DNA from: a virus
DNA length: 64,000 nucleotides
Strand: one strand, 5' to 3'
Virus record (IMG/VR): IMGVR_UViG_3300009666_000001
The position numbers and the translations under genes are program-made. The notes beneath the pieces were generated by a model that was not told where the DNA came from, made no database searches, and was given only the letters and a program-made list of their open reading frames with translations. Positions 6,322 to 15,666 of this stretch are shown here, piece by piece; within the stretch, counting starts at the first letter, position 1, and each line of letters begins with the position of its first letter.

Positions 6322-6809
6322 ATGTGTTTTTCTAAAGAGATTTACATCGATGACAAAAACAATATAAAACCTTGTATAACTGATAAAGATATAAAAGTTT
6401 ACAAATATACCTTTGGAACAATTATATCTGAAGGTTATATGGTTTATGATGAGTTTTTATCAGAAGTACGTGCTTATAGATATTGTAAAAACAAAACTAA
6501 TCCTACTGTAAAATTAAATTATCATATCTATAAACAATATATAGGTGCTTGTGGTACTCTTAAATAGAATCTAAGTATATTATTCTTATAGACAAAGGTT
6601 ACCATTCTTATAAAAATATAACAACAATGTTACCAGTAGTCGCTCTTGCATACTTAAATATTCATGATATCAAAATAGGTGAATTTATCATACCTAAAGG
6701 TAGTGAATATTATGAGAATGATTACGGCGAAATAGTATCTTCTGATATTATCTTTAAAGGTTTTGTTAATCTTAAAGAATTAAATCATGAATTAGCATCT
6801 GAAACGTGA
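6322..6809 (+). pseudogene. MCF/GYHSY/IPKGSKYY family paralog 1, split by a frameshift
   Basis: The N-terminal module (MCF...DIKVYKY...NPTVKL) ends at TAG 6565. The family core IDKGYHSY...IGEFIIPKGSEYYENDYGEIVSSDIIFKG continues in another frame (6627..6809 ORF; 6627-6322 is not a multiple of 3). Confidence 0.65.
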
Positions 6810-6840
6810 TAATAATATAACTTAAACAACCAAAAATACG

Positions 6841-7065
6841 ATGACTATTACTTTTTTCTACACTTACAAGTTAGATGGCAAGGAATTTAAGACTAAGCTT
6901 TCTGCCGAGGTTCCTGAAAATCCTAAGGGACCTGTTATCCTTGATAGAAAAGTTGCTTTAAACTTATTTTGGACTAAACTTCCTGAAATTCTCAGGGATA
7001 GTGATCTATCTACTGATGCCGAGCTTCCTACACCTCTTACAATCGAAATAACTAATATTGTATAA
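6841..7065 (+). CDS. small protein, paralog family B (with 8388..8621)
   Basis: ITFFYTYKLDGKEF...VPE...LNLFWTKLPEIL aligns by eye with ILTFNYEMDDKIY...LPD...LMLFWKTFSKVI. Confidence 0.55.
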   Translation: MTITFFYTYKLDGKEFKTKLSAEVPENPKGPVILDRKVALNLFWTKLPEILRDSDLSTDAELPTPLTIEITNIV

Positions 7066-7067
7066 TC

Positions 7068-7316
7068 ATGGAAAAGAATGTAATCATAACTTATGAAAAT
7101 TGTCCTGAAAATGAATTACTCGAGTTATACGATGAAGCTGAAGTAATTAGAATGGAATTAGATATACTTGATTCTGCCGAACCTGTCTCTGCATCAGAAA
7201 AAGCCAATCTATGGAAAACCAGGCAATCTTTAGAAGATGAACTTAAGCTCATCCATGATAAGATAGATGAGCTTGAAGAACTGCTTGTTAGTAGATTTGA
7301 AGCGAATAACTGTTAA
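7068..7316 (+). CDS. hypothetical acidic protein (82 aa)
   Basis: ORF track; ATG 3 nt after the upstream stop. Confidence 0.5.
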   Translation: MEKNVIITYENCPENELLELYDEAEVIRMELDILDSAEPVSASEKANLWKTRQSLEDELKLIHDKIDELEELLVSRFEANNC

Positions 7317-7322
7317 ATAATA

Positions 7323-7455
7323 AAAAGATTCTCATCCAGAGTTTGTTTAAATCATGAACTGGAGATAAAATCATGAAATTAGAACTACAAATTTATTGGC
7401 CAATATAGTAGTAACGACGAAATATCTAGTATTGCAGACTGGTGAGAATCTTTTT
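7323..7455. repeat. 16-bp inverted repeat enclosing about 100 nt
   Basis: AAAAGATTCTCA(T)CCAG ... CTGGTGAGAATCTTTT; fills the ORF-free gap 7317-7472; interior has direct repeat AAATCATGAA x2. Confidence 0.7.
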
Positions 7456-7472
7456 TAAAAAATTATATAATC

Positions 7473-7742
7473 ATGAAAAATAAAGCTATTGTTTGTTATG
7501 ATGTAATCTGTTTTAAAGGTAGTTATAACGCTCATAAAACATCAAGAAGCGAAGAATTTTTTGATGTAGATTCTAAAATAGATATAAAAGATATTCTTTG
7601 CATGTTCTATGAGCGTCTCTATAGTAATGGTATAACTTATAGCGATATCTTAACCATTCATATAACTAAAATTTATATTGAAACAATAACAGAAAATGTT
7701 TTTTATGAATCAAATTCTAGTAATAAAGACATGTATTATTAA
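7473..7742 (+). CDS. small protein, paralog family C (with 7763..8116)
   Basis: KAIVCYDVICF...MFYERLY versus KAIVYYKTIYF...RFYDRLE in the adjacent gene. Confidence 0.5.
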   Translation: MKNKAIVCYDVICFKGSYNAHKTSRSEEFFDVDSKIDIKDILCMFYERLYSNGITYSDILTIHITKIYIETITENVFYESNSSNKDMYY

Positions 7743-7762
7743 ACTTAATAAAAATTTAAGCC

Positions 7763-8116
7763 ATGTATAAAGCTATCGTGTATTATAAGACAATTTATTT
7801 TGAACATGATTATGATGATCCTAAAGTTTTAGAACAAAAAATAGTTTTAGATTTAGATGATTATTTCGATGATGATCAAGACTATTTTAATGAAGAAGAA
7901 GACCGTATTGAACTATTACACTTCATTCTTGGAAGATTTTATGATCGTTTAGAGAATCAAGATCCACTTTATAAGGTTGTAAGTGAAAAAGCAGATGTGA
8001 ATGAAAGTGGTATTTTATCACGAACAGTAACAAAAGTAGTTTCTGTAATACCTAATCCTAAAAAACAAATACTTTATTTAAAAGAGCGAAATGAAGGGAA
8101 AAAAATACAATATTAA
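7763..8116 (+). CDS. small protein, paralog family C
   Basis: See 7473..7742; carries an acidic insert (DDYFDDDQDYFNEEED). Confidence 0.5.
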   Translation: MYKAIVYYKTIYFEHDYDDPKVLEQKIVLDLDDYFDDDQDYFNEEEDRIELLHFILGRFYDRLENQDPLYKVVSEKADVNESGILSRTVTKVVSVIPNPKKQILYLKERNEGKKIQY

Positions 8117-13607: not shown

Positions 13608-13657
13608 AAAATTAGTTTTTCTAGGTTTTCCTAGTGTTTTTGGTTGGTTAGTAAGTA

Positions 13658-13690
13658 GAGCCCTGGATAAGCTCTGGGGCTTTATTTTTA
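13658..13690 (+). terminator. probable intrinsic terminator
   Basis: AGCCC-13 nt-GGGCT followed by TTATTTTTAT; the loop is long, so moderate confidence. Confidence 0.45.
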
Positions 13691-13732
13691 TATGTTTAAA
13701 AATATTATTTTCAAAATAGTAAATAAATAATC

Positions 13733-14197
13733 ATGTGCTTTGTCAAAAAATTAACAGAAGAAGAATTCAAGAAAAAGAGAATTCCCGCATTAATAACAGA
13801 TAAAGATATAGAAGTATATAAATATACTACTACTTTTTTAATTAAATGCGAGGTTTTTTCATCTCATGTGTTTAAATATCCTCACTACAAAAACAGAACT
13901 AACCCAACCATACAATTAAAACGTATATATCATGAAGTATTCAAACTTCTAATATCGAAAGATAAATATTTACGTGAATATTGTATGGAAATAGAAGAAG
14001 GTTATCATTCTTATAACTCATTAGAAACTGCTAAGAAATTTATGAGTAAAGATATGAGTTGTTACGATACTACTTTATTTTTAAAATATACAATAGGTAA
14101 ATTTATCATTCCTAAAGGAAGTAAATATTTTAAAAATGAAGAAGGTGAATTGGTTTCATCCAATATTATTTTTAAAGAAATTATTAAAGATAAATAG
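13733..14197 (+). CDS. MCF/GYHSY/IPKGSKYY family paralog 3
   Basis: MCF, DIEVYKY, NPTIQLK, EEGYHSY, IGKFIIPKGSKYFKNEEGELVSSNIIFKE. Confidence 0.7.
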   Translation: MCFVKKLTEEEFKKKRIPALITDKDIEVYKYTTTFLIKCEVFSSHVFKYPHYKNRTNPTIQLKRIYHEVFKLLISKDKYLREYCMEIEEGYHSYNSLETAKKFMSKDMSCYDTTLFLKYTIGKFIIPKGSKYFKNEEGELVSSNIIFKEIIKDK

Positions 14198-14199
14198 CT

Positions 14200-14628
14200 A
14201 TGTGTTTTATTAAAATAATAAAAAATAATAATATTAAACCATTAATAGCTAAAAACGATATTACGGTTTATAAATATACCTCAGAATTTACAGAGAATTC
14301 ACCATATGAGGCTTCAAATTCTATTTTTAAATCTTTGGTAAAAGGATACGACTACCATCGTGACAAAGAAAATCCCACTATAGAATTAAAACCCCGCTTT
14401 AATCCAGTTAGTTCTTTTATGGTCATAGAAAAAGGGTATCATTCTTATGGTAATTTAAAATTAACTAAAAAATATTATAGTAGATGTTATAGAGAAGGTC
14501 ATCGTGTTTATAAAACATATTTTGGGAAATTTATTATTCCGAAAGGTAGTAAGTATTACGTAAGTATTCAAAAATATTACGGTAGGAAATATGTATCTTC
14601 TAACATTATTTACAAAGGTCTTGTTTAA
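14200..14628 (+). CDS. MCF/GYHSY/IPKGSKYY family paralog 4
   Basis: MCF, DITVYKY, NPTIELKP, EKGYHSY, FGKFIIPKGSKYYVS...VSSNIIYKG. Confidence 0.7.
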   Translation: MCFIKIIKNNNIKPLIAKNDITVYKYTSEFTENSPYEASNSIFKSLVKGYDYHRDKENPTIELKPRFNPVSSFMVIEKGYHSYGNLKLTKKYYSRCYREGHRVYKTYFGKFIIPKGSKYYVSIQKYYGRKYVSSNIIYKGLV

Positions 14629-14646
14629 CTTGAAAATATAAATAAC

Positions 14647-15159
14647 ATGTGTTTTACGCAAGAATATTATAATGATATCATCCCTAATGCTAAAATAGCC
14701 AATAAGGATATTGAGGTATATAAATATGTAAAAGGTAATTATCCACTAACAGTCGATAATACTAAATTTATATCTTATATATATACTTTTGAATATATTG
14801 CTAATAAAAAAAATAAAAAGATCCAGCTAAAACCACGACTATGTATGCGGTTTGATTTAAACCCTTGGTTAGAGATAAACTTTAATGATATAAATGATTG
14901 TCCTATGATCGCTATAGATGAAGGATATCATTCGTATATAAATTTAAATACAGTTGAAAAATTTATATTAGATAATCCTTTAATTTACCCTATCATAGAA
15001 CAATCTAAAATTTATAGTTATTATATAGGTAAATTCATAATACCAAAAGGTAGTAAGTTCTATAAAAATAATAGTGGAGAAGTAGTATCTTCTTGTTTAA
15101 TATATACTGGTAAGTATAAAAAATTTATAACCACATTTGAAAATAATTACTACATTTAA
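14647..15159 (+). CDS. MCF/GYHSY/IPKGSKYY family paralog 5
   Basis: MCF, DIEVYKY, IQLKP, DEGYHSY, IGKFIIPKGSKFYKNNSGEVVSSCLIYTG. Confidence 0.7.
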   Translation: MCFTQEYYNDIIPNAKIANKDIEVYKYVKGNYPLTVDNTKFISYIYTFEYIANKKNKKIQLKPRLCMRFDLNPWLEINFNDINDCPMIAIDEGYHSYINLNTVEKFILDNPLIYPIIEQSKIYSYYIGKFIIPKGSKFYKNNSGEVVSSCLIYTGKYKKFITTFENNYYI

Positions 15160-15171
15160 AAAATAATTATT

Positions 15172-15666
15172 ATGGGTTTTATTAAAGAATATGATGGTGA
15201 ACCACCTAAACCAAGAATTGCTACTAAAGATATTGAAGTATACAAATACTCACAAATGTATGAATATATTACTGGATGTTATATATGCCCTTGTAATACT
15301 GAAAAATTTTATTCTAATGTATTCTCTTTTAAATATATTACAAATAAAAAGAATAAAAAAATTTCTTTAAAACCTAAATTAAGCACATTATATGAAATAA
15401 AAACTTGGATAAAATATTCAAAATATGCACGAATACCTGATTTTAAAGTTATTTACATAGAAAAGGGTTATTATTCTTATGAAACTCCCGATAAAATTAA
15501 AGCGTTTTTAGAGGAATAGAGTGAATCTCGTGCCGAAGATTTATTTATTTACTATATAGGTACTTTTATAATACCTAAAGGAAGTAAATATTATAAAAAT
15601 AATGATGGAGAAGTAATATCTTCTAATTTAATTTACACAGGTAAATATGAAAAAATTAAATTTTAA
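15172..15666 (+). pseudogene. family paralog 6 (MGF start) interrupted by an in-frame TAG at 15517-15519
   Basis: After TAG the same frame reads SESRAEDLFIYYIGTFIIPKGSKYYKNNDGEVISSNLIYTGKYEKIKF then TAA at 15664-15666. The conserved C-terminal family module is retained in frame. Confidence 0.65.

Follow-up and report, generated by a model that had tools for sequence, protein, structure and literature searches.

Herein, we describe a family of small proteins encoded by six paralogous genes in a 64,000-nucleotide (nt) stretch of viral DNA (IMG/VR record IMGVR_UViG_3300009666_000001; hereafter, the window), which we assign from its gene content to a novel crAss-like phage of ~102 kb. All six genes lie on the + strand. 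The first, g1 (6322–6809), is broken by a frameshift: its N-terminal open reading frame (ORF; 6322–6567) begins MCF and ends at a TAG, while the remainder is read in another frame from ~6564 to a TGA at 6807–6809. The second, g2 (8625–9176), is intact and encodes 183 amino acids (aa); its NP..LKP block and GYHS motif are separated by a six-Cys insert (CKCSMGCSDCPTIIDC...C), and a further 8 residues are inserted in the N..GE loop. The remaining four genes form a head-to-tail run: g3 (13733–14197; intact, 154 aa), g4 (14200–14628; intact, 142 aa), g5 (14647–15159; intact, 170 aa) and g6 (15172–15666). The run is tight, with g4 starting 2 nt past g3 and the next gaps measuring 18 and 12 nt. Five copies begin with MCF. 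The sixth, g6, begins with MGF (Cys2 replaced by Gly), has GYYSY in place of GYHSY (His replaced by Tyr), and contains an in-frame TAG at 15517–15519. A terminator-like hairpin on the + strand (13653–13687; a 15-bp stem and a T-run, found by pattern match only) stands 46 nt upstream of g3 and would make the g3–g6 run a separate transcription unit.

An alignment of the six copies has 25 invariant columns, with the shared blocks MCF, DI.VYKY, GYHSY, IG.FIIPKGS.YY and VSS.II. Pairwise identity ranges from 34% to 47%, and the closest pairs are neighbors, g3/g4 and g5/g6, at 47% each. The similarity is far above chance: in BLASTP comparisons, the most divergent intact pair, g2 and g5, matched with E=1e-13, and the C-terminal fragment of g1 matched g3 with E=9e-16. 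Scanning the whole window in six frames with a hidden Markov model (HMM) of the family recovered exactly six copies and no more. An earlier reading of the letters alone (the sequence-only reading) had listed six related genes at these positions, with invariant blocks around divergent middles, four copies head-to-tail, five MCF starts and a Cys-rich insert in one; every part of this description holds, and the shared blocks have clear statistical support.

Next, we determined how large and how widespread the family is. A word-indexed search with the six-copy profile retrieved 1,173 proteins, none of which carries a Pfam domain. In a full-library HMMER search with an 82-sequence profile, 6,676 representatives of 50% identity clusters matched with an E-value of 1e-3 or lower, 1,804 of them with one of 1e-10 or lower, and nearly all of these matches begin at residue 1. 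The carriers are phages. In IMG/VR, 58 loci were found, on contigs of ~95–190 kb, which are crAss-like sizes, and of 220–350 kb, as in jumbo phages. The IAS virus (Steigviridae) has one copy (gp013, YP_009981799.1), and the cultured Xanthomonas jumbo phages Xoo-sp13 and XacN1 have copies in four and three places, respectively; all are annotated as hypothetical. The sequence-only reading had pointed to Crassvirales and Bacteroidota genomes as the place to search. The family does occur in crAss-like phages, but it is not confined to them, as the Xanthomonas phages show. Among 185,579 bacterial and archaeal species, represented by one genome each, a scan with two peptide patterns gave a single match, on a 3.9-kb contig of a metagenome-assembled genome, so that absence from cells here means absence of the canonical form. 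The family is thus very large and found almost only in phages, and it consists of small (~120–180 aa), single-domain, mostly beta-strand proteins.

The sequence-only reading could assign the family to no named domain, and the catalogues bear this out. Pfam searches with 6, 82 and 10 members at E-values up to 10 returned scattered chance matches only; NCBIfam and PADLOC gave no match for the family; and three family profiles searched against PDB sequences found no match with an E-value under 0.04. Three PDB proteins seen in these searches were set aside as chance matches: Legionella LnaB (8jo3/8k6e), which matches the GYHSY motif only, and an AbrB-like protein (2glw) and lactate dehydrogenase, which match the FIIPKG...VS strands only. 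The sole catalogue entry that holds the family is PHROG 13450, of unknown function, with no description or literature attached to it, and no profile search placed the family in a well-characterised domain. All six window copies match this entry (best E 4.1e-7), but the matches are weak and partial (g1 covers profile positions 32–118 of 153), and by our counts it covers a small slice of a family of >6,000 clusters. Literature searches that covered phrog_13450 and DUF7666 as well as crAss-like paralog families and phage proteins with an N-terminal cysteine turned up no account of the family, which is known so far only as this anonymous entry.

The MCF start of the window copies is the local form of a family-wide signature at the protein level. 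Of 257 collected homologues, 235 start with MC, 202 of them with MCW and 22 with MCF. Where Met1 is aligned, Cys2 is present in 368 of 375 sequences. For 152 of 155 unique viral copies, the ORF has no earlier Met than the one preceding this Cys, which lies a median of 4 codons past the previous stop. The Cys2 codon in the viral copies is TGT in 132 cases and TGC in 21; since both Cys codons are used, the constraint acts on the amino acid at the true N-terminus. We refer to these proteins as the Met-Cys family. Residue 3 is restricted as well, with 152 of 155 copies having W, F, L or Y (window positions 6328, 8631, 13739, 14206, 14653 and 15178). The same four residues are read by ClpS as N-degrons in bacteria, and loss of Met-Cys would expose residue 3 and create a degradation signal. 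The restriction itself most likely reflects the place of residue 3 as the first buried residue of strand 1.

Conservation beyond the N-terminus was assessed in 386 unique sequences aligned to the family HMM, whose numbering is used throughout. Cys2 is conserved in 95% of sequences (98% where the N-terminus is aligned), Lys22 in 98%, Tyr41 in 96%, His77 in 95%, Ser78 in 92%, Pro119 in 100%, Gly121 in 94%, Tyr124 in 92%, Asn127 in 92%, Glu131 in 82% (the alternatives being Asp, His or Gln) and Ser134 in 98%. The sequence-only reading had proposed invariant Cys, His and Ser residues as a possible catalytic set. The best-conserved set is not simply Cys/His/Ser; it comprises Cys2, Lys22, Tyr41, His77-Ser78, Pro119, Asn127, Glu131 and Ser134, and its polar members are typical of an active or ligand site. 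In the most divergent branch, that of the jumbo phages (MCL...), only M1, C2, L3, an Ile, the Lys, the His and the Pro are invariant. Cys2 and His77 tend to be lost together: His77 is absent in 3 of the 7 Cys-less sequences vs 14 of the 368 with Cys (Fisher p=0.002, although these amount to about two independent events only), and g6 is among the sequences that lack both. Covariation in the same 386 sequences (mean-field direct coupling analysis and mutual information) couples residues 2–3 weakly to Lys22, position 76, Asn127 and Glu131, and is too noisy to place the contacts of Cys2.

AlphaFold2 models were built for g3 (82 sequences; predicted local distance difference test (pLDDT) 89.6, predicted template modelling score (pTM) 0.83) and for the compact 122-aa member P0233 (146 sequences; pLDDT 95.5, pTM 0.87). 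Both models are mostly beta, with 10–11 strands and one or two helices; a strand begins at residue 3, and residues 1–10 are confidently placed in both (pLDDT 89–90). The structure prediction and fold comparison that the sequence-only reading had suggested thus gave a confident fold but no significant match in the PDB: against 350,542 PDB chains, Foldseek found none at E<1e-3 with either model, and template modelling (TM) scores were mostly 0.1–0.3. Against the predicted viral structures of BFVD, the proteins matched significantly are uncharacterised, and the runs of their accessions suggest that single phages encode several paralogs.

A Cys at the very N-terminus that opens a beta-strand is the hallmark of three known groups, the SRAP family (HMCES/YedK), the N-terminal nucleophile (Ntn) hydrolases with the class II amidotransferases, and the Hint/intein family, and the Met-Cys proteins might be divergent true members of one of them. 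In SRAP and Ntn proteins, the functional Cys becomes N-terminal after removal of Met, with His, Asn and Glu nearby, and the Met-Cys family shares the N-terminal Cys, its Met removal being itself predicted, and has conserved Asn, Glu and His as in SRAP. The resemblance stops there. No member matched a Pfam model of any of these families at E≤10, including PF02586, and the conserved residues come in another order. None of the many PDB structures of SRAP, Ntn or Hint proteins, nor any papain-like or double-psi barrel fold, was among the top 50 Foldseek matches of either model. A domain of ~120 aa with one or two helices (the models span ~120–154 aa) is too small for the four-layer alpha-beta-beta-alpha Ntn sandwich, of which only the nucleophile at a strand start is seen, and of the Hint features only Cys1 is present, with neither the C-terminal His-Asn nor the TxxH block. 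By these sequence and fold tests, membership in SRAP, Ntn or Hint families is effectively excluded, the least probable of all the readings considered here.

Another possibility is a minimal ADP-ribosyltransferase (ART)-like enzyme that uses NAD, with a His77-Tyr124-Glu131 triad. Like Alt, ModA and ModB, early enzymes of T4, it would modify proteins or nucleic acids of the host. More generally, the Met-Cys genes recall the expanded families of accessory genes in the early regions of large virulent phages, of which T4 alt/modA/modB are an example: they are small, non-essential-looking, same-strand paralogs upstream of replication genes and vary between close relatives, but there is no homology. 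His, Tyr and Glu occur in the right order, and the Y-H-[S/G] motif followed by a helix resembles the GYHGT motif carried by exotoxin A. The idea sprang from a single local Foldseek match of the first model, to chain 2aua_B (BC2332; probability 0.96, E 0.17, TM-score 0.32, root-mean-square deviation 3.2 Å over 92 columns, 18% identity). SCOP puts BC2332 in the ADP-ribosylation fold (PMC3000352, PMC3024214). This match is not significant, and it was not recovered with the better model (pLDDT 95.5), whose sole ART-like match was Tne2, at probability 0.06. No other ART structure appeared in the top 50, despite hundreds in the PDB, and no ART-clan Pfam match was found at E≤10 among 102 members. In addition, Tyr124 and Glu131 are 7 residues apart, too close for ART strands beta2/3 and beta5, and Cys2 and Lys22 would be left without a role. 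We consider an ART assignment quite improbable.

A more promising relative is DUF7666 (PF24703), a domain that also has no known function. A hand-written probe sequence was a strong match to PF24703 (125 bits) and retrieved 662 real DUF7666 members. In profile comparisons with hhalign, the jumbo-phage branch of the Met-Cys family (A5) matched DUF7666 with P=3.5e-4 and a probability of 37%, and the crAss-type branch (A3) with P=0.016–0.045, vs P=0.3–0.43 for reversed-sequence controls. The weaker BFVD matches include, at E 3.4e-3, a phage protein named 'Pentapeptide' and, at probability 0.96, a DUF7666 protein; overall, the DUF7666/Pentapeptide proteins gave probabilities of 0.96–1.0 with E-values of 3e-3 to 0.35. 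The motifs are collinear in the two groups (VYK with AYKGF, Y..G with QYEEG, GYHSY with GFHAC, and P.GS.Y with P..SVY), the final strand matches, and DUF7666 genes are multi-copy too, occurring twice in the accessory region of one 76-kb phage contig. The two groups also differ. DUF7666 has invariant Cys13, Cys32 and Cys39 around His37, where the Met-Cys family has Ser or a variable residue, Ile and Tyr, and it is often an N-terminal domain fused to pentapeptide or collagen-like repeats, whereas Met-Cys proteins stand alone. The Pfam DUF7666 model detects none of 102 family members, even at E≤10, and no PDB relative of DUF7666 was found. On balance, we lean toward true remote homology, and the Met-Cys family is probably a distinct, Cys-bearing branch of an uncharacterised DUF7666 superfamily, for which the link may provide a first anchor.

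The genes of the family duplicate in tandem, diverge in two variable regions and are often lost, a birth-and-death pattern. Across 59 loci, nearly all have 2–10 same-strand, mostly tandem copies, each starting M-C-[WFLYT], and many loci include split copies; beyond lineage-specific synteny, no conserved neighbor or partner gene was found. A related phage (contig L065) keeps the split g1, an intact g6-like gene that is 88% identical and a g5-like gene (P0005) that is 55% identical, while the genes flanking g5 are 96–99% identical; g2, g3 and g4 are absent from it. Since synonymous sites saturate at the 34–47% identity of the paralogs, the ratio of nonsynonymous to synonymous substitution rates (dN/dS) was taken from the L065 counterparts. 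It is 0.46 for the N-terminal part of g1, 0.40 for g5 and 0.20 for g6. The flanking genes are 91–100% identical between the two phages, with dN/dS of 0.04–0.11 where measurable, vs 55–88% identity for the family genes. Thus, the family is the fastest-changing component of the region, under purifying selection overall. The sequence-only reading had described a pattern of tandem amplification, rapid divergence and decay, and all three elements recur here: in the arrays at the 59 loci, in the raised dN/dS and in the absence of g2, g3 and g4 from L065, as well as in the lesions of g1.

Two copies had been called disrupted, and both lesions are real. The frame switch in g1, at ~6562–6567, is an 8-nt insertion (ATAGAATC) relative to a related contig, L070, and is common to the window phage and L065. 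L070 itself lacks the insertion, but a 31-nt deletion there takes out GYHSY; on this comparison, the same gene has been broken in two independent ways within the lineage. In g6, the TAG at 15517–15519 corresponds to a Trp in the intact relative P0003, that is, to a change from TGG to TAG. P0003, though intact, also lacks Cys2 and the His (MSF, GYYSY), as g6 does. The g1 and g6 lesions are identical in four independent assemblies of the window phage. Because the shift site has no slippery heptamer (X XXY YYZ), g1 appears to be a pseudogene.

We also considered whether g1 and g6 are expressed after all, g1 by programmed frameshifting and g6 by read-through or reassignment of TAG. TAG is reassigned in some crAss-like lineages (PMC7886860), one metagenome gene caller put Gln at the g6 TAG (P0001), and the g1 lesion does occur in two related phages. 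Yet none of the three tRNAs of the window is a suppressor. Under the standard code, ORFs in the window already reach 4,789 aa and gain little when TAG is read as sense, so there is no sign of TAG reassignment in the genes of the window. The g6 TAG descends from a TGG rather than from a codon for Gln, and g6 has additionally lost Cys2 and His77; in g1, the 8-nt insertion and the different deletion in the other relative both argue for decay. On the tRNA, ORF and lesion evidence, we rejected recoding of these two genes as very improbable. Elsewhere, in each of three metagenome proteins of ~300 aa (P0007, P0009 and P0013), a Gln links the products of two family genes that lie in tandem (...KYLKLQ[T/I]MCW...). 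These 'fusions' are likely products of gene callers that read a TAG stop as Gln on contigs of 8.6–189 kb. P0007 and P0009 sit on 180–190 kb contigs, and some carriers of the family may be TAG-recoded phages.

What could such proteins do? We tentatively favor, at somewhat less than even probability, an early accessory effector built around a reactive N-terminal Cys that acts covalently on a host target. In this model, removal of the initiator Met would expose a free N-terminal Cys with its alpha-amine and thiol. Together with His77 of GYHSY, Lys22 of VYK, and the loop and strand that bear Asn127, Glu131 and Ser134, this Cys would form a reactive center. The center would then carry out covalent chemistry on a host molecule, either by nucleophilic catalysis or by covalent capture, and would in principle recall the Ntn hydrolases or SRAP proteins, though with another fold. 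Target specificity would lie in the variable inserts, which fall into two regions, one from the NP..LKP block to GYHSY and one past the helix. The array would accordingly supply the phage, early in infection, with accessory effectors that diversify as a set; g1 and g6 would be dead or dying copies.

Several observations weigh against a reactive Cys. No cysteine-enzyme fold, whether Ntn, SRAP, papain-like or another, matched either model. In nine sequences, Cys2 is retained and residue 77 is Tyr instead of His. DUF7666 starts at the strand equivalent to VYK and thus lacks the ~16-residue N-terminal segment that bears Cys2, and its three Cys around the equivalent His look more like a metal site than a nucleophile. 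Finally, many phage counter-defence proteins are non-enzymatic binders.

The most serious alternative is a non-catalytic binder or inhibitor in which Cys2, His77 and an acidic residue (Glu131 or Asp17) bind a metal or pin the N-terminus, while the inserts form a surface that blocks a host factor. The residues of DUF7666 around the equivalent His (C13, C32, H37 and C39) are a typical C3H zinc constellation, and the hhalign link that brings DUF7666 in is strongest for the jumbo-phage branch. The alternatives to Glu131 include Asp and His, which are also metal ligands; g2 and P0176 gained extra Cys-rich segments; and the proteins are small, single-domain, fast-evolving and multi-copy, as are many anti-defence binders. 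On the other hand, a ligand need not be exactly N-terminal, yet the position of the Cys is fixed in 152 of 155 copies. The family has a single conserved Cys only, and Lys22, Tyr41, Ser78, Asn127 and Ser134 are conserved beyond the needs of a structural site. We consider a purely binding role unlikely, though by far the strongest of the alternatives to a reactive Cys.

If the reactive center does exist, it would be a third, structurally independent N-terminal-Cys chemistry, after those of the Ntn hydrolases and SRAP. A broader proposal is more doubtful: that the family is a new class of N-terminal-Cys enzyme or covalent trap, unrelated to Ntn and SRAP proteins and with a fold as yet absent from solved structures, and that large virulent phages of hosts as distant as Bacteroidota (crAss-like phages) and Xanthomonas (jumbo phages) use it as a diversifying, multi-copy arsenal against host components, for example of defence or signalling. 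Since the arrays are tandem, decaying and fast-diverging, a part in phage-host conflict is itself likely. This makes the family a good candidate, albeit an unproven one, for a novel type of phage effector. Comprising >6,600 clusters (50% identity) and having neither a Pfam entry nor any literature that we could find, it is among the larger uncharacterised phage families. The crAss-like gut phages, in which the family abounds, have early genes that are almost all uncharacterised, and the presence of the family in the cultured phages Xoo-sp13 and XacN1 opens it to genetics now.

The assignment of the window to the crAss-like phages is based on genes inside it, the capsid and terminase genes falling outside; its family A DNA polymerase is 34–37% identical to those of cr108_1, cr111_1, IAS virus and crAss001, and megablast against GenBank phages found no close relative of the region. 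The + strand block from ~5.6 to 40 kb encodes a DnaB-like helicase, a primase, a ribonucleotide reductase, the polymerase and an amidoligase-type module. The six genes, surrounded by small unknown genes, are at the start of this block, upstream of the replication genes, a position that would fit early or middle expression. From 40 kb, a minus-strand block follows with giant ORFs typical of the crAss transcription block. Four of these succeed one another at 40348–63696 and encode 1,381, 4,789, 474 and 1,129 aa; the three that were scanned, of 1,381, 474 and 1,129 aa, have no PHROG match. The block is presumably a highly divergent form of the crAss-type transcription and virion RNA polymerase block.

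Terminator-like hairpins are about three times more frequent in the window than expected from shuffling (7 found vs 2.4 expected). Besides the one upstream of g3, they include a hairpin at 9314–9332, downstream of g2, and a bidirectional one at 5372–5388, at the strand-switch point. A 548-nt non-coding gap at 11968–12515 contains four ~31-nt repeats (YCTGAYAAGGA-N6-ACAGCAA) at 12160, 12235, 12308 and 12370, spaced 62–75 nt apart, and two copies of CATACAGCAAT at 11970 and 12106. The gap looks like an iteron-bearing origin region or a promoter array, and no Rfam family matches it.

Around g1 and g2, two further pairs of small genes look like weak paralogs (6841–7065 with 8388–8621, BLASTP E 0.009; 7473–7742 with 7763–8116, E 0.014), a hint that whole cassettes may have been duplicated in this region. 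In L065, an IS200/IS605 element with a Y1 TnpA gene and a TnpB/Cas12f-like gene (L065:3262–4989) lies between the genes for the 89-aa and 117-aa proteins. The insertion point corresponds to ~7742–7763 of the window, which is without the element. At another locus, L069, a TnpB gene adjoins DUF7666 genes. A second multi-copy family, of ~143 aa (METNSNTL...), adjoins Met-Cys arrays at loci L007–L056, with 71 copies in 32 of the 59 loci (for example, L020:4057–4485); it does not occur in the window. Further downstream, clustered at ~24249–31373, are genes for four proteins: a class I glutamine amidotransferase/Peptidase_C26, a gamma-glutamyl cyclotransferase-like protein (GGACT), an ATP-grasp protein and an amidoligase. 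By these annotations, the cluster resembles a modification module for peptide or amide ligation. The gene at 10300–11967, past g2 and ahead of the tandem run, encodes a 555-aa protein that matches Pfam DUF7788 and PHROG 850 ('RNA-binding protein') and is kept in the related phage at 91% identity.

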